This document shows, piece after piece, positions 686 to 18,884 of a DNA stretch of 64,000 bases. Position 1 is the stretch's first letter; each line of letters opens with the position of its first letter. The position numbers and the translations under genes are program-made. A model generated the notes under the pieces. The model ran no database searches. It worked only from the letters and a program-made list of their open reading frames with translations, and was not told the DNA's origin. The stretch is from Acidobacteriota bacterium (GTDB lineage: Bacteria > Acidobacteriota > Thermoanaerobaculia > Gp7-AA8): NCBI GenBank assembly GCA_019244185.1, contig JAFATB010000026.1, forward strand, positions 156,130 through 220,129, given 5' to 3'.

Positions 686-761
<76 letters not shown>

Positions 762-884: not shown

Positions 885-912
885 TTGACAGGCGGCGGAG
901 GGGGCGTAGACT
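885..912 (+). promoter_or_regulatory. sigma70-type promoter for the riboswitch leader
   Basis: TTGACA (885-890), 16 bp spacer, TAGACT (907-912), just upstream of the aptamer. Confidence 0.75.
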
Positions 913-937
913 CGTCGGTGCCGCCCACCAGGTGGCG

Positions 938-1080
938 GCCTTGCCGCCTAATCCTCGGCGCCGAGGAGCGGGGGAACCGATCAGCGACGGCTTGCCACCG
1001 TCCGGGGTGAATCCGGCCGAAAGCCGGTAGGGCTTCCAGCCCGAATCCGACAGCTAACCTCGTAGGCAGCCGGAAGGCAG
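938..1080 (+). ncRNA. cyclic di-AMP (ydaO/yuaA) riboswitch aptamer
   Basis: Hallmark blocks in order: GCCTAATCC..GAGGAGCGGGGGAACC..GGGGTGAATCC..GTAGGGC-TTCC-AGCCCGAATCCGACAGCTAACCTCGTAGGC, then GGAAG able to pair with TTCC as the pseudoknot. Confidence 0.9.
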
Positions 1081-1086
1081 GCCAAG

Positions 1087-1120
1087 CAAACGCCGCGAAT
1101 CTCGCGGCGTTTGTGTTTTC
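1087..1120 (+). terminator. Intrinsic terminator (riboswitch expression platform)
   Basis: CAAACGCCGCGA-ATC-TCGCGGCGTTTG followed by TGTTTTC. Confidence 0.85.
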
Positions 1121-1390
1121 AGGCGGAAATCAGGGGGTGTTCACCTTTTCCTCACATGGTGCTAGAGTACGCCGCGATTTGGCGGAAAGGCGCTGCGTGA
1201 GCCCGGATGCCGGATGGGGTTCAACGATTCAAAAGTAAGAACGCTGTGGAACGGTGATTTGAACGAATCACCTGTCTGCGCATAGCTCTTTGCAAGCCGA
1301 ACTCGATGTGCAGCAACAAGTTGGCAGGATCTGGCATGAACGGCCGGAAACCTGCACAAGGGTCGCCCCGAAATCTAGAAAGGAGCCGAT

Positions 1391-4300
1391 ATGAAACGGT
1401 GCCCTACCATTTGGTCTCGTGCGGTTTGGACCGCACTGCTCGTATCACTGATCGCCGTCGGTGCATATGCGCAGCTTCAGTCAGGTAACATCTTCGGTAC
1501 AGTCACAGGAAATGATGGAGCCGCCCTCCCGGGCGTCACTGTCACCCTCTCAGGTATCGGTGCGGCGCAAAACACCGTCACCGATTCCGCCGGCCGCTTC
1601 CGCTTCATCAACCTCTCCCCCGGAACCTACACGCTCAAGGCAGAACTGGCCGGATACGGCACGGCGACGCGCAGCGGCGTGACGGTCAACATCGGTCGTA
1701 ACGCCGAACTGGCGATGACGCTCAATCCGTCCGTGTCGCAGTCGATCACGGTCACGGCCGAAGCGCCTCTCCTGGACGTGCGCAAGACCGGCACGGGCAA
1801 CGACGTTCCGCGCGTCGAGCTCGAGAAAATCCCGTCGGCCCGCGACCCGTGGGTCATCCTGCAGCAGACCCCGGGCGTCACCATGGACCGTAACAACGTC
1901 GGTGGTAACGAGTCGGGTCAGCAGTCGGTGTACGTTTCGAAGGGCACGATCGGCACGCAGTCGACGTGGAACGTTGACGGTGTCAACATCACCGACTTCG
2001 CCGCCACCGGTTCTTCGCCGTCGTACTACGACTTCGACTCGTTCGAAGAAATGCAGATCACGACGGGTGGTTCGGACCCGCGCATCATGACCCCGGGCGT
2101 CCAGCTCAACATGGTCACCAAGCGCGGCACGAACGACTTCAGCGGTTCCGCGCGGTACTTCCGCACGGACGGCGCCTGGCAGGCGGATCCCCGCGTTCCG
2201 GCCGAGGCGACCGCGTATCTCCCGCGTGTCAACGAGATCAACGGCATCAGCGATGCCGGCGGTGACATCAGCGGTCCGATCATTCGCGACAAGCTGTGGC
2301 TGTGGGCTGCCTACGGCAAGCAGAACATCAACATCCTGTCGGCCGCGATCATCGCGGGCGCTCGCTTCCAGGACAAGACGCTCCTCCGCAACGAGAACGT
2401 CAAACTGAACGCGCAGCCGTTCGCCTCGAACAGCCTCACCCTCGTCGACCAGTTCGGTGAGAAGATCAAGAAGGGCCGCAACGTCGGTCCGACGCGTCTT
2501 CCGGAAACCGCCTGGAACCAGGGCAACATCTATGACAACGGCACGGGCAGCCTGACCGACCCGACGCTGTGGAAGATCGAAGACACGCAGCTCTTCGGAC
2601 CGAACTTCTACCTCACCGGCATGTACTCGAAGGTCCAGGGCGGTTTCGGCCTCATCGCCGACAACGGCCAGGGCTGCACGACGTTCGAGTGCGGCGCTGC
2701 CGGCCCGGTGGCCAAGTTCAACGAAGCGATCGGCGCGTGGCAGGACAGCTACGTCAGCATCGACTCGCTCCGTCCGCAGACGCAGTATCGTTTGGACGGT
2801 TCGGCGTTCGCCAACACGGGCGCGATGAGCCACGAGTTCAAGTTCGGCTGGGGCTATCGCGAAGCGAAAGTCACCTCTGACTCCGTCTGGCCGGGTGGCG
2901 AATACACCGACCTGTACTCCCTCGTCGGCGGTACGGACCAGGTGCTGTTCACCCGCTTCCCGCTCCTCACGTTCTCCGCGAAGTCGACCGACGCGTACAT
3001 CGGCGACACGATGCTCCTCGGCAACCTGACCCTCCAGGCCGCTCTCCGTTACGACCTGCAGAAGGGTGCCAACTCCGCCGGCGTCTCGCCTGCGAACTCC
3101 GTCGTTCCTGAAATTCTCCCGACCGTCAACTTCCCCGCGGCCAGCGGCCTGTCGTGGGACAACATCTCGCCCCGCCTCGGTCTCACCTACGCTCTCGGCG
3201 CGGATCGCCGCACGCTGCTGCGTGCCGGCTACAACCGCTACGTCAACCAGCTCAACTCCGGTGCAGTCACCCCGACGTCCCCCGGTGCGTACTCCCGCGT
3301 TCTGTACTACTTCAATGACCTGAACCACGATCAGGTCGCGCAGCACAACGAGATCGACTTCGACTACGGTCCGCTCTTCTTCGATGGATTCGATCCGGCG
3401 AACCCCGGTGCCGCCGGCACCGCGTTCACCCGCTGGGATCCGGACCTGAAGGCGCCGATCACGGACGAAATCCTCCTCGGCGGCGAGCGCGAAGTGCTCA
3501 CCAACTTCAGCGTCGGCCTCAACCTCACGTACCGCAAGCTGAAAGACTTCGTCGGCACCTACAACGAGAAGCACCAGGGTCAGGGTGACTTCTACACGGC
3601 GGCCGACTACGTGCAGCGCCACACCAGCGGCACCCTGAACAACAACGTCCCCACGTCGCCGTTCGCGGGTACGCCGTTCGACGTCACGTACTACGAACTG
3701 GCCGCCGGCGTTCCGCTCCCGGTCTACAGCGTCATCCGCAACATCCCTGACTACGAGCAGACGTACAAGGGCGCTGAGCTCAACCTCATCAAGCGCATGT
3801 CCAACCGCTGGATGATGCGCGGCAACGTGACCCTCCAGGACTGGACGCAGGATTCCGGCGCGAACACGTCGGCTGACCCGAGCCGCGCTCGTGCGGCCAA
3901 TGCGTTCACGGCCTGCCTCACCTGCAACGGCGCGGTCATCTATCAGTCGACCGGTTCGGGCAGCAAGGGCAACGTCTACATCAACTCGAAGTGGTCGACG
4001 AGCCTCACCGGCCTCTATCAGATCCCGGTCGTCGAGACCTCGCTCGGCTTCAACCTGAACTCGCGTCAGGGCTACGCCCTCCCGTACGTGTATGCGGTTC
4101 GTACTCGTGAAGGCACGAAGAACATCATCGCGACCGACGAGGTCGACTCCGAGCGCCTCCCGAACGTCACGCAGCTCGACATGAACCTGTCGAAGGACTT
4201 CCGCTTCCGTGGCCTCGGCTTCACGGTTTCGGTCGACGCGTTCAACGTGCTCAACAAGAACACGGTCCTGCAGCGCAACGCCGGCGCCGAGAACGCCAAC

Positions 4301-4417
4301 GCGTTCAACAGCGCGAGTCCGACGGGCAGCGCTCTGAACACGTCCACCACCACCGGTCGTGTGGTCGAAGTGCTCTCGCCGCGCGTGTTCCGCATCGGCG
4401 CCCGCTTCTCCTTCTAA
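1391..4417 (+). CDS. TonB-dependent receptor-like (Oar-type) outer membrane protein with carboxypeptidase-regulatory-like N-domain
   Basis: AAGGAG RBS, signal peptide, GTVT..GAALPGVTVT domain, plug-like region (VDGVNITD, NMVTKRGTN), C-terminal RIGARFSF. Frequent GGT/CGT codons suggest high expression. Confidence 0.9.
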   Translation: MKRCPTIWSRAVWTALLVSLIAVGAYAQLQSGNIFGTVTGNDGAALPGVTVTLSGIGAAQNTVTDSAGRFRFINLSPGTYTLKAELAGYGTATRSGVTVNIGRNAELAMTLNPSVSQSITVTAEAPLLDVRKTGTGNDVPRVELEKIPSARDPWVILQQTPGVTMDRNNVGGNESGQQSVYVSKGTIGTQSTWNVDGVNITDFAATGSSPSYYDFDSFEEMQITTGGSDPRIMTPGVQLNMVTKRGTNDFSGSARYFRTDGAWQADPRVPAEATAYLPRVNEINGISDAGGDISGPIIRDKLWLWAAYGKQNINILSAAIIAGARFQDKTLLRNENVKLNAQPFASNSLTLVDQFGEKIKKGRNVGPTRLPETAWNQGNIYDNGTGSLTDPTLWKIEDTQLFGPNFYLTGMYSKVQGGFGLIADNGQGCTTFECGAAGPVAKFNEAIGAWQDSYVSIDSLRPQTQYRLDGSAFANTGAMSHEFKFGWGYREAKVTSDSVWPGGEYTDLYSLVGGTDQVLFTRFPLLTFSAKSTDAYIGDTMLLGNLTLQAALRYDLQKGANSAGVSPANSVVPEILPTVNFPAASGLSWDNISPRLGLTYALGADRRTLLRAGYNRYVNQLNSGAVTPTSPGAYSRVLYYFNDLNHDQVAQHNEIDFDYGPLFFDGFDPANPGAAGTAFTRWDPDLKAPITDEILLGGEREVLTNFSVGLNLTYRKLKDFVGTYNEKHQGQGDFYTAADYVQRHTSGTLNNNVPTSPFAGTPFDVTYYELAAGVPLPVYSVIRNIPDYEQTYKGAELNLIKRMSNRWMMRGNVTLQDWTQDSGANTSADPSRARAANAFTACLTCNGAVIYQSTGSGSKGNVYINSKWSTSLTGLYQIPVVETSLGFNLNSRQGYALPYVYAVRTREGTKNIIATDEVDSERLPNVTQLDMNLSKDFRFRGLGFTVSVDAFNVLNKNTVLQRNAGAENANAFNSASPTGSALNTSTTTGRVVEVLSPRVFRIGARFSF

Positions 4418-4439: not shown

Positions 4440-4471
4440 AACCCGCTGGGGGCAACCCCAGCGGGTTTTTT
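4440..4471 (+). terminator. Rho-independent terminator
   Basis: AACCCGCTGGGG-GCAA-CCCCAGCGGGTT followed by a T run. Confidence 0.9.
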
Positions 4472-5639: not shown

Positions 5640-5665
5640 CGCGCTCACGCGTCTGACTCGTGCGC

Positions 5666-7900
5666 ATGTCCTTCCAGCGGTTCCCACGCTCCATCAGGGC
5701 GGTCGTTTCCACGGCCGCCCTGATGTTCGTTACGCTCTCCTGCGGGCGCCGTGCGGCGATCCCCGCGCCGTCGCGCCAGACGCCGGTCATCCTGATCTCG
5801 ATCGATACGCTGCGGTCCGATCACCTGCCTGCATACGGCTACAAGAGCGTCGAGACGCCCGCCATCGACGCGCTGCGCGCCGACTCGATCCTCTATCGCC
5901 GCGCGTACAGCCACACGCCGCTCACGTTTCCGTCGCACGTCTCGATCCTCACCGGCATGCTGCCGGCGGACAACGGCGTGCGCGACAACGTCGGCTACCG
6001 CGTGTCTCCCTCCGCGCAGATGGTGCAGGAGGTGCTCAAGAAGAACGGCTACGTGACGGGCGGCGCGATCTCCGCGTTCGTGCTGCGTCACGAGACGCTG
6101 CTCTCGCGCGGCTTCGACTTCTTCGACGACGCCGTGCAGCCGGTGAACGGGCAGATCGCCATCGGACGCGTGCAGCGCACCGGCGGTGAGACGCTCGCGG
6201 CCGGCAAGCCGTGGATCGACGCACATATCAACAAGCCGTTCTTCTTCTTCCTGCACCTCTACGATCCGCACACGCCGTACACGCCGCCCGAGCCGTACTT
6301 CTCGCGTTACACGAATCACTACGACGGCGAGATCGCGTACTCCGACTCGCTCGTCGGTGAGCTGATCGCAGACCTCAAGCAGAAGGGCGTCTACGACAAG
6401 GCGCTCATCATCCTGCTTTCCGATCACGGCGAAGGTCTCAACGAGCATGGCGAGGAGGAGCACGGCTTCTTCCTCTATCGCGAGGCCATCCAGGTGCCGC
6501 TGCTCGTCAAGCTGCCGAACTCCGCGCGCGGCGGCACCAGCGTCGACGCGCCGGTGCAGCTCGTCGACGTCTTCCCGACCATCGTCGAGCGCACCGCCAG
6601 CGCGATGCCGCCGGGCAATCATCCAGGACAGTCGCTGCTCGCGTTCCTCGACAAGAACGCGCCGTCGCGGCAGATCTACTCGGAGACGTACTACGGCCGC
6701 TTCCACTTCGGCTGGAGCGAGCTGCATTCGCTGATCAGCGGCAACGATCACTACATCCGCGCGCCGCAGCCCGAGCTCTACGACCTCGACAAAGACCCGG
6801 GCGAGAAGCACAACGCGATCGAGGAGAACCGCCGCGCGTACGTGCGTCTGCGCGCCGCGATCGAGCCGCTCATCAAAGAGCCGGAAGCCCCGTCGAACGT
6901 CGACTCCGAAACGAAGGCGAAGCTCGCCGCGCTCGGCTACATCGGCTCGACCGTGCAGACCGCGAAAGGGCAGGCGCTGCCCGATCCGAAGACGAAGATG
7001 GGCGAGTTCCACGACGTGCGGCTCGCGTACACGTACTTCGAGAACAACAACCCGCAGGAAGCGCTCAACATCACGCAGCGGCTGCTGAAGAACAATCCCG
7101 AGCTCGTGGACATGTGGGATCTGCAGGCCAAGATCCTCTTCAAGCTCAACCGCCGCCAGGATGCGCTCGAAACGGCGAAGGAAGGACTGCGTCATTCGCC
7201 GATGGCGATCACGCTGCTCTTCAATGTCGCGGACATCGCGCTCGCGCTCAACGATCTCGACACCGCGCAGAAGCATCTCGAGATCGCCGAGAAGATCGAG
7301 CCGGGCCAGGCGCACGAGACGCTCGCGCGCGTCTGGCTGCTGCGCGGCAACCAGCAGAAGGGCGAAGAGGAAGCGAAGCTCGCGCTGCAGACGCATCAGA
7401 TCCCGACGAAAGCGCTGATGATCCTCGGCTCCATCGAGATGGACCGCCAGCATTACGAGAAGGCGCTCGAGTACTACCGGCAGGCGGGAGCGGGGGAGAA
7501 GCGCTGGACCGGGAAGCCGGTCGAGAACCTGCACGCGAACAGCGGCGACGCGCTGGCACGCCTCGGACGCAACGACGAAGCGGAGCGCGAGTTCCGCGCG
7601 GAGCTCGTCGACTTTCCGAAGAACGCGCGCGCGTACTCGTCCCTCATCGTGCTGCTCGTGACGGAGCGCCGCACCGACGAGGCCACGCGGCTCGTCTTCG
7701 ACGCGATCAAAGCCAATCCGACGCCCAACATGTACGAGGTCATCTCCGAGACGCTGAAGGCGATCGGCGATGATCGCGGCGCGATGTTCTGGGCGTATCA
7801 GGGCATCCAGAAGTTTCCGCAGGACGCCGAGCTGCGGCGGCTGCCGCAACGCCTCGAGCGCGTCACGCCGCTGCTGCGAGAGCACATGCGCACGAACTGA
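5666..7900 (+). CDS. Sulfatase-like (alkaline phosphatase superfamily) hydrolase/transferase with TPRs, probable lipoprotein
   Basis: ISIDTLRSDH, TFPSH, HLYDPH, SDHGE motifs; LSC lipobox; TPR C-terminus. Start could be GTG 5660. Confidence 0.88.
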   Translation: MSFQRFPRSIRAVVSTAALMFVTLSCGRRAAIPAPSRQTPVILISIDTLRSDHLPAYGYKSVETPAIDALRADSILYRRAYSHTPLTFPSHVSILTGMLPADNGVRDNVGYRVSPSAQMVQEVLKKNGYVTGGAISAFVLRHETLLSRGFDFFDDAVQPVNGQIAIGRVQRTGGETLAAGKPWIDAHINKPFFFFLHLYDPHTPYTPPEPYFSRYTNHYDGEIAYSDSLVGELIADLKQKGVYDKALIILLSDHGEGLNEHGEEEHGFFLYREAIQVPLLVKLPNSARGGTSVDAPVQLVDVFPTIVERTASAMPPGNHPGQSLLAFLDKNAPSRQIYSETYYGRFHFGWSELHSLISGNDHYIRAPQPELYDLDKDPGEKHNAIEENRRAYVRLRAAIEPLIKEPEAPSNVDSETKAKLAALGYIGSTVQTAKGQALPDPKTKMGEFHDVRLAYTYFENNNPQEALNITQRLLKNNPELVDMWDLQAKILFKLNRRQDALETAKEGLRHSPMAITLLFNVADIALALNDLDTAQKHLEIAEKIEPGQAHETLARVWLLRGNQQKGEEEAKLALQTHQIPTKALMILGSIEMDRQHYEKALEYYRQAGAGEKRWTGKPVENLHANSGDALARLGRNDEAEREFRAELVDFPKNARAYSSLIVLLVTERRTDEATRLVFDAIKANPTPNMYEVISETLKAIGDDRGAMFWAYQGIQKFPQDAELRRLPQRLERVTPLLREHMRTN

Positions 7901-7902
7901 TC

Positions 7903-10032
7903 GTGCATCCGAAGATGGCAGCTCGCAAATCGCGCATCGTCCTCGTTTCCGTCGTCGCGGTCGTGCTCGTCGCGGCCGCGGCGGCCTGGTTCGTCGTGAA
8001 GCGTCATGCCGCGAGCGGCGGCGGTGCCGGCGCGTTCTTCGGCGGACACAGCGGCCCCGCGCGCGACATCATCCTCGTCACCATCGACACGACGCGCGCG
8101 GACGCGCTCGGCTACGCCGGCAACACCACCGTCCGCACGCCGTTCCTCGACTCGCTCGCGGCGAAGGGCCTCGTGTTCACGAACGCGCACGCGCACAACG
8201 TGATCACGCTGCCGTCCCACATCAACATCTTGACCGGTTTGTATCCGTACCAGCACGGCGTGCGCGAGAACGCCGGCTTCACGCTCGACGCCTCGCACGC
8301 CACCGTCGCCACGATGCTGCGCAAGGCCGGCTACGCGACCGGCGCGTTCGTCGGCGCGTTTCCGCTCGACGCGCGCTTCGGACTCAATCAGGGCTTCGAC
8401 GTGTACGACGACAACTACGGCAAAGGACAGGCGACCGTCGACTTCGTCGTGCAGGAGCGACCCGCGAGCGCCGTGCTCGCCGCGGCCACGGACTGGTGGC
8501 GGCGCAACGAAGGGAAGAAGCGCTTCATGTGGGTCCACTGCTACGACCCGCACGCGCCGTATCTGCCGCCCGAGCCGTACCGCACGGAGTTCCGCGGACA
8601 TCCGTATCTCGGCGAGATCTCGTACGTCGACGCGCAGCTCTCCGAGGCGCTGACGCCGATCCTCACGGCGAATCCCGACGCGCTCGTCATCGTCACCGCC
8701 GATCACGGCGAGTCGCTCGGCGAGCACGGCGAGCGCACGCACGGACTGTTCGCCTATGAAGTCACGCTGAAGATTCCGCTGCTCCTCGCGCGCGGCGGCG
8801 TCGCGCACCGCGTCGTCTCCGACTACGTGCGCCACATCGACATCGTGCCCACGATCCTCGACTCCGCCGGCGTCGCCGCGCCGAAAGAACTGCTCGGACG
8901 CTCGCTGCTGCGGAGCGGCGCCGCGACCGACACGTACTTCGAGTCGCTGTCGACGTCGATCAACCGCGGCTGGGCGCCGCTCACCGGCGTCATCCACAGC
9001 GGCCTGAAGTACATTCAGGTGCCGATCACCGAGCTGTACGACCTGCAGTCCGATCCGCACGAGCAGACCAACGTCGCCGGCGACCGCCGTCGCGACGTCG
9101 AGGCCGCGCGAAAGATTCTGGCGTCGCTCGCGAGCAGCGCGCCCGCGCCGTCGCGCAACGTTTCGAGCGAAGAGATCGCGCGGCTGCGCAGCCTCGGCTA
9201 CATCACCGGCTCCGCGGAGACGAAGGACCACTACACCGCCGCAGACGATCCGAAGACGCTCGTGCACCTCGACTCGAAGATGCACGACGCGGTCGATGCG
9301 TTCGAGCGCGGGCAAGCCGAGCGCGGCCTCTCGCTCGCGCGCGAAGTGGTCGCCGAGCGTCCGACCATGAGCGCGGGCCGCGAGTTGCTCGCGTTCATGC
9401 TGCAGCAGAACGATCGCGTCGCCGAGGCCATCGAACAGCTCGAGGTGCTGACGCGCGATCCGCACGTGAGCGACGACGACCGCACGCAGCTCGCGTTGCT
9501 GTATTGCGAGACCGGGCAGCCGAAGAAAGCGGTCGCGCTGCTCGAGCCGCACAGCAAGACGGACAATCCCGATCTGCTCAACACGTATGGCGTCGCGCTG
9601 TCCGATGACCGCCAGGTCGAGCCCGCGCGGCAGCAGTTCGAGCGCGCGCTCGCGATCGATCCGAACAACGCGCCGGCGCTGCAGAACCTCGGCATCCTCG
9701 CGCTGCGCATGGACGACGTGCCCACCGCGCGCAACTATCTCGGCCGCGCGCTCGAGCTCAATCCGAAGCTGCCGCTCGCGCTGAACACGCTCGGCGTCGT
9801 GTACGCGCGCGAGAACGACTTCCAGCACGCCGTGGAGATGTGGCAGCGCGCCGTCGACGTCGATCCGCGCCAGTACGACGCGCTCTACAACATCGGCATG
9901 GTGGCCGTGCAGGCGCGCAACGCGCCGGCCGCGCGTCAGGCGCTCACGCGCTTCGTCAACACCGCGCCGCCGTCGCAATACGCGAACGACATCGCCTCCG
10001 CGCGTCGCATCCTCGCGACGATGCCGCACTGA
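7903..10032 (+). CDS. Second sulfatase-like hydrolase/transferase with TPRs
   Basis: VTIDTTRAD, TLPSH, HCYDPH, ADHGE motifs; N-terminal membrane anchor; TPRs. Start could be ATG 7915. Confidence 0.88.
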   Translation: MHPKMAARKSRIVLVSVVAVVLVAAAAAWFVVKRHAASGGGAGAFFGGHSGPARDIILVTIDTTRADALGYAGNTTVRTPFLDSLAAKGLVFTNAHAHNVITLPSHINILTGLYPYQHGVRENAGFTLDASHATVATMLRKAGYATGAFVGAFPLDARFGLNQGFDVYDDNYGKGQATVDFVVQERPASAVLAAATDWWRRNEGKKRFMWVHCYDPHAPYLPPEPYRTEFRGHPYLGEISYVDAQLSEALTPILTANPDALVIVTADHGESLGEHGERTHGLFAYEVTLKIPLLLARGGVAHRVVSDYVRHIDIVPTILDSAGVAAPKELLGRSLLRSGAATDTYFESLSTSINRGWAPLTGVIHSGLKYIQVPITELYDLQSDPHEQTNVAGDRRRDVEAARKILASLASSAPAPSRNVSSEEIARLRSLGYITGSAETKDHYTAADDPKTLVHLDSKMHDAVDAFERGQAERGLSLAREVVAERPTMSAGRELLAFMLQQNDRVAEAIEQLEVLTRDPHVSDDDRTQLALLYCETGQPKKAVALLEPHSKTDNPDLLNTYGVALSDDRQVEPARQQFERALAIDPNNAPALQNLGILALRMDDVPTARNYLGRALELNPKLPLALNTLGVVYARENDFQHAVEMWQRAVDVDPRQYDALYNIGMVAVQARNAPAARQALTRFVNTAPPSQYANDIASARRILATMPH

Positions 10033-16472: not shown

Positions 16473-18137
16473 TCAGCGCAGAAATCCGCGCTCGCGCAAC
16501 AGCGACACGATCCGCCGCGCGTTCTCCTCGGGACGCGCGCGGACCGTGTCGAGCGTGAGCTCCGGCGCGAGCGGCGGCTCGTACGGATCGTCGATCCCGG
16601 TAAAGTTCTTGACCAATCCGGCACGCGCCTGCGCGTACATCCCTTTGATGTCGCGCGACTCGCACACGTCGAGCGGCGTGTCGACGAAGATCTCGATGAA
16701 GCGATGCGCGCCGGCCAGCTCGCGCACGCGGTCGCGCGTCGCGCGGTACGGGCTCACCGCCGCGCAGACCGCGACGCCGCCGTGGCGCACCACTTCGCTC
16801 GCCACGTAGCCGATGCGCAGGATGTTCGTGTCGCGATCCTCTTTCGAGAAGCCGAGGCCTTTCGAGAGATGCGTGCGCACGACGTCGCCGTCGAGCACCG
16901 TCGCTTGTCGCCCGTGCTCGAGGAGCAGCGTGACGACGATGTCCGCCGTCGTCGACTTGCCCGCGCCGCTCAGCCCCGTGAACCAGAGGCAGAAGCCTTC
17001 GCGATATCGCGGCGGGTGTGCCTCCGCGAGAATCGCCGCGACCTCGGGACGCGTGAACCATTCCGGCAGCGGCTTGCCGGCGGCAAGGTAGTCCTCGCGC
17101 ACCTGCGTTCCCGACAGCGACAGCGACGGCTTGTCCGACTGCTCCTCGTAGTGGCCGTCGACGTAGACGAGCTGGCGGAACGGCACCATCTTCACGCCGA
17201 TCTCGGCTTCGTATTGGGCGACGAGCTGCTGCGCGTCGTACGGACCGTAGAACGGCCCGGGACTGGCGTGATCGCGGCCGACGATGAAGTGGTTCGCGCC
17301 GAAGTTGCGGCGGATGATCGCGTGCCACAGCGCCTCGCGCGGTCCGGCCATGCGCATCGCCAGCGGCAGCAGCGAGAGCAGCACGCGATCGGGCTCGTAG
17401 TAGTGCTCGACGAGCGCCTTGTACGTGCGGACGCGCGTGTAGTGATCGATGTCGCCCGGCTTCGTGAGCCCGACCACGGGATGCAGCAGCAGCACGCCGT
17501 CGGTCGCTTCAATCGCGCGATGCGTGAGCTCCTCGTGCGCGCGATGCAGCGGATTCCGCGTCTGGAACGCGACGACGTTTTCGCGTCCACGTTCGGCGAG
17601 CAGCGCGCGCACGTCCGCAGGCGTGCGGCGCAGTTCGACGAAGTCGTAATGCGACGGCAGCCGCAACACGCGCAACGGTCCGCTGATCTGCAGCCGTCCC
17701 CAGCGATCCATCTCCGCCACGAGCGGATGTTTGCGATCGGTCGTGCCGAAGACTTTCTGCGCCGTCTCGTCGACGTCCCAGCCGTAGATCTCGTCGACGG
17801 TCATCACCGCGAGCAGTTCCTGCCGCGGGCTGCGCAGCGCGACGTCGTGATGCAGTGCGACCGGCGCGCTCGCGTCGACCGGCAGTGTCACCGGAATCGG
17901 GAACAGCGCGCCGCCGGCGAGACGCATCTCGTCGAGCACGCGTTGAAAGTCGGCCTGGCCGAGGAAGCGATCGAGCGGGGAGAAGGCGCCGGTGGCAAGG
18001 AGCTCGAGGTCGCACGTCGAACGTTCGCTGAGCTGCACCGACGGCAACGTCGCGGCATAACGCGCGAGCTCGGCGGCGGTCTCGGGCGGCTCGAGCAGGT
18101 TCACGAGAGTGCCGCCGTACGGAGAGATCAGTTCCAT
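16473..18137 (-). CDS. sat/cysC: Bifunctional sulfate adenylyltransferase / adenylylsulfate kinase
   Basis: QTRNPLHRAH, GRDHA and APS kinase motifs WFTGLSGAGKST, LDGDVVR, FTGIDDPYEPP. Confidence 0.95.
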   Translation of the reverse strand: MELISPYGGTLVNLLEPPETAAELARYAATLPSVQLSERSTCDLELLATGAFSPLDRFLGQADFQRVLDEMRLAGGALFPIPVTLPVDASAPVALHHDVALRSPRQELLAVMTVDEIYGWDVDETAQKVFGTTDRKHPLVAEMDRWGRLQISGPLRVLRLPSHYDFVELRRTPADVRALLAERGRENVVAFQTRNPLHRAHEELTHRAIEATDGVLLLHPVVGLTKPGDIDHYTRVRTYKALVEHYYEPDRVLLSLLPLAMRMAGPREALWHAIIRRNFGANHFIVGRDHASPGPFYGPYDAQQLVAQYEAEIGVKMVPFRQLVYVDGHYEEQSDKPSLSLSGTQVREDYLAAGKPLPEWFTRPEVAAILAEAHPPRYREGFCLWFTGLSGAGKSTTADIVVTLLLEHGRQATVLDGDVVRTHLSKGLGFSKEDRDTNILRIGYVASEVVRHGGVAVCAAVSPYRATRDRVRELAGAHRFIEIFVDTPLDVCESRDIKGMYAQARAGLVKNFTGIDDPYEPPLAPELTLDTVRARPEENARRIVSLLRERGFLR

Positions 18138-18185
18138 GCGGCGCGCATTCTACGGTCTCGCGGCACCGCTTATACTCGCCCTCGC

Positions 18186-18884
18186 GTGGAATCGGATTTC
18201 GAGCAGCGACTCGGCTACACCTTTCAGCAGCGCGAGCTGCTGCGCCGCGCGCTGACGCACAAGTCGTATTCGCACGAAGCCAAAGACGACGCCGTGCGGC
18301 ACAACGAGACCTTCGAGTTCCTCGGCGACTCCGTGCTCGGCTTCATAGTCGGCGACCTGCTCTTCCATCAGTTCCCGGATCTCGACGAGGGCGCGCTCTC
18401 GAAGATGAAGGCGTTCCTCGTCAGCGCGCCGAGTCTCGCGAAGAAAGCGCGCGGCTACGGGATGGGCGAGGTCATGCTCCTCGGCGTCGGCGAGGAGAAG
18501 ACCGGCGGCCGCAAGAAAGACTCGCTGCTCGCGAATCTCTTCGAGGCGATCGTCGCCGGGATCTACCTCGACGGCGGCATCGAGCCCGCGCGGCAGCTCA
18601 TCGAGCGCTCGTTCCTCGACGACATCCGCTCCATCGACGAACAGGACCTGCTCTTTCAGGACTACAAGACCGCGCTGCAGGAGCTCGCGCAGGGCAACGG
18701 CTTGCAGCTGCCGGAGTACAACGTCGTCGCCGAAGTCGGTCCCGATCACGACAAGACGTTCGTCATCGAAGTGAAGGTCGGCAGCTTGACCGCGCGCGGC
18801 GAAGGCTCGTCGAAGAAAGAAGCGCAGCAGCAGGCGGCGCGGCTCGCGATGCGCGAATACGACGCGCGCCATTCCTCATCGTGA
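18186..18884 (+). CDS. rnc: Ribonuclease III
   Basis: ALTHKS, NETFEFLGDSVLG signature, dsRBD DYKTALQE..GSSKKEAQQQAA; GTG start 18186. Confidence 0.95.
   Translation: MESDFEQRLGYTFQQRELLRRALTHKSYSHEAKDDAVRHNETFEFLGDSVLGFIVGDLLFHQFPDLDEGALSKMKAFLVSAPSLAKKARGYGMGEVMLLGVGEEKTGGRKKDSLLANLFEAIVAGIYLDGGIEPARQLIERSFLDDIRSIDEQDLLFQDYKTALQELAQGNGLQLPEYNVVAEVGPDHDKTFVIEVKVGSLTARGEGSSKKEAQQQAARLAMREYDARHSSS

Follow-up and report, generated by a model that had tools for sequence, protein, structure and literature searches.

The stretch of DNA analyzed here is a 64-kb window from an Acidobacteriota bacterium (Thermoanaerobaculia; Gp7-AA8; GCA_019244185.1, contig JAFATB010000026.1, 156,130-220,129), which contains near its left end a compact RNA unit built around a cyclic di-AMP (c-di-AMP) aptamer of the ydaO/yuaA class. 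Coordinates below are window positions, and features lie on the plus strand unless stated otherwise. The promoter is of the sigma70 type, with TTGACA at 885-890, a 16-nucleotide (nt) spacer, and TAGACT at 907-912; it matches the consensus at 10 of 12 positions and is the sole such site in positions 1-2000, compared with 0.3 ± 0.5 in shuffled sequences. Given the 6- to 8-nt spacing from the -10 element to the conserved 5′ end, the RNA would start at about G920. The aptamer (935-1081) aligns with the entire RF00379 covariance model (positions 1-134 of 134) with a score of 77.9 bits (gathering cutoff, 38; E value, 2e-16), and 52 of the 56 upper-case consensus positions are identical by a hand count on the alignment. 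Judged by sequence and structure together, the RNA is a member of RF00379. It is present as a single copy in its own genome, which is 98.9% complete. Only 4 nt past the Rfam match begins an intrinsic terminator (1086-1119), in which a 13-bp hairpin (1086-1114; -22.4 kcal/mol; z score, -4.1; 0 of 200 shuffles equally stable) runs into TTTGTGTTTT at 1110-1119, with a U tract up to 1119. A simple promoter/terminator scanner run over positions 1-2000 did not list this terminator. The predicted RNA is about 200 nt long (about 920-1119).

An earlier reading of the letters by a model, referred to here as the sequence-only reading, had taken this promoter, full aptamer, and terminator for a c-di-AMP riboswitch controlling a TonB-type receptor gene on the same strand, and all of these parts are indeed in place. 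The receptor is encoded by an open reading frame at 1391-4417 (1,008 amino acids, ending in a C-terminal Phe), with a ribosome-binding site, GAAAGGAG, at 1378-1385 and a terminator directly behind the gene (4440-4471), the stem motif of which occurs 33 times in the genome. Our Pfam scan gave CarboxypepD_reg and Plug domains and no barrel match. The nearest Atlas clusters are Oar-like TonB-dependent outer-membrane barrels, and all 10 of those listed carry PF25183 in 52 to 100% of their members. A solved barrel relative of the receptor was not found by sequence, and an AlphaFold model made without an alignment was unusable (mean predicted local distance difference test score, 29.5).

Both caveats of the sequence-only reading held up. 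The distance from terminator to ATG, put at about 270 nt, is 271 nt, and the second promoter suspected near 1160 has a plausible form, TTCACC (1140-1145), 17 nt, and TG-C-TAGAGT (1160-1168), making 1140-1168 the probable promoter of the receptor gene. As a motif, the extended -10 element recurs past the terminator and ahead of the receptor in 28 of the 52 copies that adjoin a receptor. In the same genome, a receptor paralogue with 75% identity (G000:C14:57497-60496) resembles it in its 3′ leader motifs but lacks an aptamer, and another with 44% identity (C15:8477-11332) also is without a riboswitch. The receptor's own leader, of about 220 nt, has conserved blocks of its own at 1214-1385 (GATTCAAAA..GAAC and YGGCA..GGCYG..CTGCAC), seen in about 20 relatives and in part in the C14 paralogue; they may serve as binding sites for a regulator or belong to a second RNA element. 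A sigma54 reading of these motifs was dropped, as the spacing does not fit.

The RNA is characteristic of one Thermoanaerobaculia family, whose members are uncultured. Among the relatives, 32 of 36 family members and 1 of 24 outsiders gave an RF00379 match. A class-wide sample showed a single copy per genome in 35 of the 36 family members, covering 17 of 18 genera, and a match in 1 of the 114 genomes from elsewhere in the class; phylum-wide, 22 of 151 genomes had one. An exact pattern scan of 185,579 species genomes yielded 89 loci carried by 88 genomes. The titles of 80 loci name Thermoanaerobaculia or Acidobacteria (some gp7) in 78 cases, one Candidatus taxon, and one member of the Planctomycetota (L104). 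The last holds an acidobacterial rnc-RNA-tRNA locus, and no cyclase match was found in its genome, for which reason we suspect misbinning; the contig is probably misassigned. Viral contigs gave no match to the variant. Unpublished genomes are included: G002 and G024 in the comparison of relatives; G238 (L127), G254 (L143), G283 (L172), and G288 (L177) in the neighbor counts, the alignment, and the tree, with G288 also in the receptor search; and G392 as one of the 35 of 36 family genomes. Of the 89 neighbor labels, one receptor, two rnc, and one TPR label come from these genomes, and no conclusion hangs on them alone.

Throughout this distribution the unit is kept as a unit. A -35/-10 pair of the same type precedes 69 of the 89 copies and a -10-like hexamer precedes 86, the terminator core is retained in 88, and the predicted length ranges from about 190 to 225 nt. 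Where the aptamer-terminator spacing is 4 nt here, it is 19 to 27 nt in six other Acidobacteriota switches. The RNA core is at least 84% identical to the window copy (median, 94%), whereas CdaA, the diadenylate cyclase, falls to 41 to 59% in 13 of 84 genomes. No conserved RNA element was found 3′ of the terminator in the aligned copies, which diverge directly after the U tract; in some, the next promoter or stop codon comes within 5 to 30 nt of the terminator.

What lies next to the RNA is far less constant. Among the 89 copies (about 30 neighbor labels were set by hand; two receptor labels come from the conserved leader and two from longer copies of the same stretch), the receptor comes next downstream in 52; 10 have rnc there, 7 a convergent ispA, 7 tRNA-Phe (6 on the same strand and 1 convergent), and 5 a TPR gene; the remaining neighbors are a VWA gene, a sulfatase fragment, five other features, and one that is unknown. 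The 28 family loci not chosen by pattern gave a similar spread: receptor 19, rnc 3, convergent ispA 2, VWA 1, sulfatase 1, and none found 2. The linkage of aptamer and receptor suggested by the sequence-only reading is thus common in both sets, and elsewhere the next feature is something else. Direction varies as well. The RNA is inverted between unchanged neighbors, in the order ispA, RNA, tRNA, rnc in L151, L152, L159, and L161, and reversed in L136 (on a 1.47-Mb contig) and L102. In L146 the receptor lies upstream and divergent, and L277, a copy outside the pattern set, also is convergent with ispA. Of 27 genomes picked for a non-receptor neighbor, all incomplete assemblies, 17 have receptor relatives elsewhere or further on; the other 10 gave no receptor match with this query at an E value of 1e-50, and in those the RNA is intact. 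A cis-acting riboswitch is expected constantly upstream of its regulated gene and in the same direction, and the copies do not show that constancy. Since neighbors and direction vary (ispA convergent or tRNA-Phe next in 14 of 89, rnc in 10) and the RNA is kept where the receptor has no match, the claim that the receptor is the element's target is unsupported.

A FastTree phylogeny of FolP-CdaA-CdaR-GlmM (85 carriers and 5 outsiders) places all 50 receptor-adjacent rows in one starred clade of 72, with 12 deeper rows having other neighbors and the long-branch L141 unplaced; starred branches force at least 14 neighbor changes. The order of events is only suggested by these data, given that the outgroup is not clean and that one deep genome has a second copy (L178) before a receptor. 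Separately, at L021 and L044 (G011), the next gene, about 170 nt behind the aptamer, encodes a 138-amino-acid protein that looks like an Arr-type ADP-ribosyltransferase; it appears to be another unrelated insertion at this site.

A structural alignment of 81 sequences (the window copy and 80 of the 89 loci) can be fitted by one static fold in which a 5′ hairpin, an extra closing helix (P0), the aptamer helices, the pseudoknot, and the terminator all form together. With a consensus drawn from the window copy and the Rfam model, a choice that favors its score, 97.6% of the cells are paired and 19 of 63 pairs are changed on both sides; none of 500 shuffles scored as high, and slid controls reached 30 to 47%. 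The aptamer helices are 96 to 100% paired, and the pseudoknot, which joins the last loop to the 3′ purine tract (1034-1037 with 1072-1075; 4 pairs), is 95.4% paired, with one pair doubly changed in four sequences. Three elements distinguish this family. The 5′ hairpin (920-936) lies outside the Rfam model and has both-side changes in two of its four core pairs. P0 (937-945 with 1076-1083) is 93.5% paired, with two pairs showing double changes, and a duplex of -6 kcal/mol or better is possible in all 89 copies; RNAalifold did not predict it, picking instead a shifted P1 register. Finally, a hairpin at 986-1002 presents a near-invariant 7-nt loop (991-997), a candidate partner-binding site. Of 55 family loci detected with RF00379, 52 contain a 25-mer spanning this hairpin, as against 0 of 23 loci of other families; the stem covaries in L283 and L284, and L277 has one loop change.

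A helix that may act as an antiterminator pairs 1060-1067 with 1092-1098 (7 bp, one bulge); it is a candidate only, with a duplex energy of -9.5 kcal/mol compared to -19.6 kcal/mol for the terminator. In L277, the terminator is changed on both sides and the candidate antiterminator is broken. Two alternative pairings of the 5′ leader were rejected: that with the invariant loop (91% paired) has no double changes and a slid control reaches 80%, and that with the terminator also lacks double changes and is broken in seven rows where the 5′ hairpin covaries.

Genes for making the ligand are at hand. The genome of this diderm carries folP-cdaA-cdaR-glmM, so that c-di-AMP can be made; this answers positively a check on cyclase presence raised by the sequence-only reading. 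A diadenylate cyclase (DAC) was found in 84 of the 88 RNA-carrying genomes, and five relatives outside the family also have one, four of them without the aptamer. The genome gave no match for a PgpH-type phosphodiesterase, and two DHH proteins are present. The genome's two kup genes are without a riboswitch, and of 23 RF00379 loci in other Acidobacteriota families, 13 precede genes that we read, by their motifs, as Kup or APC/KimA-type transporters. Others among those loci (L076, L088, L071, L091, L083, L087, and L089) precede genes that, by their N-terminal sequences, look like those for a porin, a sulfate-binding protein, flavin adenine dinucleotide-dependent enzymes, and peptidases.

A search of RNA sequencing runs listed 24, of which 12 were recorded as RNA and none had half of the query words. 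In all four RNA runs examined, contigs cover parts of about 931-1084, and in two of them they stop at 1084 at an adapter. Summed contig depth was 4 to 713 on the RNA and 0 to 35 on receptor-like pieces, although these runs were chosen for the RNA and contig depth cannot rank genes. When base-pairing targets of the invariant loop were sought, three 12-mer windows matched two other genome sites, at chance level and none in an evident start region within the flanks covered.

The rest of the window supplies several of the features found next to the RNA in relatives. The order is tRNA-Phe, the RNA, the receptor with its own terminator, a TPR protein, two sulfatase-TPR proteins, three VWA proteins, sat/cysC, and rnc-envC-ctpA-yibQ; ispA lies about 7.5 kb upstream of the RNA in the genome. 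The tRNA-Phe(GAA) gene (686-761, minus strand) is a recurrent neighbor in either orientation, and among the copies TTGACA-17-TATCGT was seen by eye ahead of tRNA-Phe. The rnc gene for RNase III (18171-18884) opens its cluster with its own TATACT -10 element and a GTG start at 18186, and the motif is seen just ahead of the rnc start (TTG or GTG) in 8 of 10 rnc-adjacent relatives. With TATACT 9 nt before the GTG, rnc appears leaderless. It is followed by envC-like, S41 protease, and divergent deacetylase genes, and a bifunctional sat/cysC gene (16473-18137, minus strand) breaks the cluster ahead of it. The two sulfatase-fold TPR proteins (5663-7900 and 7912-10032) have Thr, within TxPSH, in place of the Cys or Ser that becomes formylglycine in sulfatases. 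This resembles phosphodiesterases that use a Thr nucleophile, and a weak PF01663 match is in line with the resemblance.

How, then, might this RNA work? We consider it probable that it is a free-standing c-di-AMP-binding small RNA that acts in trans, with the terminated RNA of about 200 nt as the product. A variable neighbor, a variable direction, and a single copy are the marks that were used for raiA RNA, and it is by these marks that we read the terminated RNA as the product. Also in its favor we count the spread through the family, the -10 motifs that the receptor and rnc carry themselves, the confinement of receptor-adjacent copies to one clade with repeated changes, a core better conserved than CdaA, one fold that accommodates every helix, the short gap between aptamer and terminator, and the lack of a riboswitch at both kup genes. 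We imagine that the sigma70-type promoter would drive synthesis of an RNA comprising the 5′ hairpin, the aptamer closed by its extra helix, and the intrinsic terminator. This terminated RNA would be what selection acts on, and the receptor would be a frequent neighbor with a promoter of its own. The RNA would bind c-di-AMP, two molecules per RNA as is known for the class, and then act in trans. One option is a high-affinity sink, buffering the small pool made by a single membrane cyclase, CdaA. The class binds its ligand with picomolar affinity (PMC7266159) and has two ligand pockets, and cellular c-di-AMP is micromolar (PMC7288161); with such values, an abundant copy could act as a sink. The other option is a ligand-gated scaffold offering loop 991-997 to a partner, and the invariance of that loop would point to a partner instead of a sink. 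We infer a slight lean toward the sink. Should the weak antiterminator work, its effect would be to make the level of terminated RNA depend on the ligand, with no gene being gated. Some ligand-dependent read-through into the receptor may occur. The fuller picture, in which this family keeps a single-copy aptamer that has left the 5′ untranslated region and become an abundant receptor of about 200 nt, buffering the messenger or signaling via its invariant loop with no cis target needed, we hold more tentatively, at somewhat less than even confidence.

A number of observations pull the other way. The receptor is, after all, the commonest next gene in both the pattern set and the unselected set, and 24 of the 52 receptor-adjacent copies have no second promoter by pattern. 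In the deep-branching genome G286 the RNA occurs twice, in diverged forms: L175 is convergent with ispA, and L178 stands before a receptor. The candidate antiterminator is 98.2% paired in the 81 sequences, although it has no double changes and 196 of 500 shuffles score as high, and by eye certain deep lineages lengthen it to 8 bp. All 81 sequences keep the terminator core unchanged, whereas the receptor's own terminator varies among 20 loci, which suits a switch. The tree is a FastTree estimate only, with an unclean outgroup; the sequencing evidence consists of contigs, by which transcripts can be neither ranked nor delimited, and among which a terminated leader would accumulate too; and the 12-mer search of the genome turned up no trans target. 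Folding energy was also considered as proof of constitutive termination. In all 89 copies the terminator forms with a probability of 0.997 or more, and the most stable fold without it is 19 to 28 kcal/mol worse. However, six presumed ordinary Acidobacteriota switches (nine were tried; parsing went wrong for one, and two yielded no terminator) give 0.92 to 0.99 and 22 to 28 kcal/mol. As ordinary switches score alike, the test is uninformative and was not used.

These points bear on three other explanations. One is that of the sequence-only reading, an ordinary OFF switch that represses the Oar-like receptor at high c-di-AMP, with the other arrangements being relics or secondary uses. It accounts well for a complete aptamer, promoter, and terminator on the receptor strand, for the frequency of the receptor, and for a candidate antiterminator, and in the G028 copy there is no room for a second promoter. 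Nevertheless, it seems unlikely to us: the unit shows no decay where the receptor is absent, distant, or divergent, the second promoter is conserved, the paralogue with 75% identity does without an aptamer, and the deep lineages mostly lack the pairing of RNA and receptor. A broader version, in which the element is a transcriptional switch acting on any downstream envelope neighbor, by read-through into rnc-envC-ctpA-yibQ or the receptor or by antisense into ispA as AspocR does for pocR, would make sense of the convergent ispA in 7 of 89 copies plus L277, for which AspocR offers a precedent (PMC8079631). The envC-like, S41 protease, and deacetylase genes would also suit the known cell wall regulon (PMC7288161). 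We think this quite improbable. One near-invariant element would have to repress some genes, activate another through antisense relief, and read into a self-promoted tRNA; furthermore, rnc has its own -10 element, and in the window an opposite-strand gene and 17 kb separate it from the RNA.

The remaining explanation gives up the ligand and keeps the free-standing RNA: a repurposed aptamer fold that binds another ligand or only a protein. The family-specific invariant loop, the extra helices, and the lack of a usual target gene could be understood in this way. It strikes us as very unlikely, with 52 of 56 consensus positions and the pseudoknot kept and a cyclase in nearly all carriers, although the cyclases of the five relatives outside the family weaken this last point. 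We return to a free-standing, c-di-AMP-binding RNA as the reading we prefer. A dual role, as for the Listeria RNA SreA discussed below, would be compatible with it.

Riboswitch surveys take a regulon from the downstream gene; applied here, that rule names the receptor in some species and RNase III, a tRNA, or nothing in others. Were the terminated RNA the product, we would have a natural aptamer serving as a second-messenger receptor in trans, with implications for how c-di-AMP is buffered where a cell has one cyclase. Even as a receptor switch, c-di-AMP control of an outer-membrane transporter would be new to the print searched. In that search, which left most subscription literature outside, we found neither a c-di-AMP aptamer as a trans-acting second-messenger receptor, nor a c-di-AMP switch before an outer-membrane TonB-dependent transporter, nor a ydaO element in opposite orientation or antisense; the lists of Nelson 2013 and Jones 2014 may include such loci.

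Comparison with known systems helps to place the RNA. With the RF00379 switches of the B. subtilis kimA/ydaO and ktrAB leaders it shares a full-length aptamer with pseudoknot, a promoter before and a terminator behind, and a host with CdaA-CdaR-GlmM. It differs from them in having no fixed downstream gene or direction, a 4-nt gap to the terminator, kup genes in the host that are not under the RNA, and an added 5′ hairpin, closing helix, and invariant loop. Rli55/EutX and AspocR, which are B12-riboswitch-gated RNAs, both differ from it in that no conserved sequence follows the terminator here. AspocR is a riboswitch without a protein gene directly downstream, as here, and its antisense geometry is that of the ispA-convergent copies (PMC8079631). 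The same source describes the Listeria S-adenosylmethionine riboswitches SreA and SreB, whose terminated RNA (229 nt for SreA) works in trans (PMC8079631). SreA keeps a fixed cis operon, whereas the present RNA seems able to do without a cis role, and the search for base-pairing targets gave none. A further parallel is raiA RNA, which was first taken for a riboswitch, was then argued from variable orientation not to be one, and was confirmed by plasmid complementation to act in trans (PMC10861870, PMC11477304). The raiA motif RNA (ModT) and the present RNA share a single copy, high conservation, and a variable distance and orientation to a favorite neighbor (PMC10861870). The raiA motif has no known ligand and usually no terminator (PMC10861870), whereas the RNA described here carries a recognizable ligand-binding aptamer and is limited to one family.
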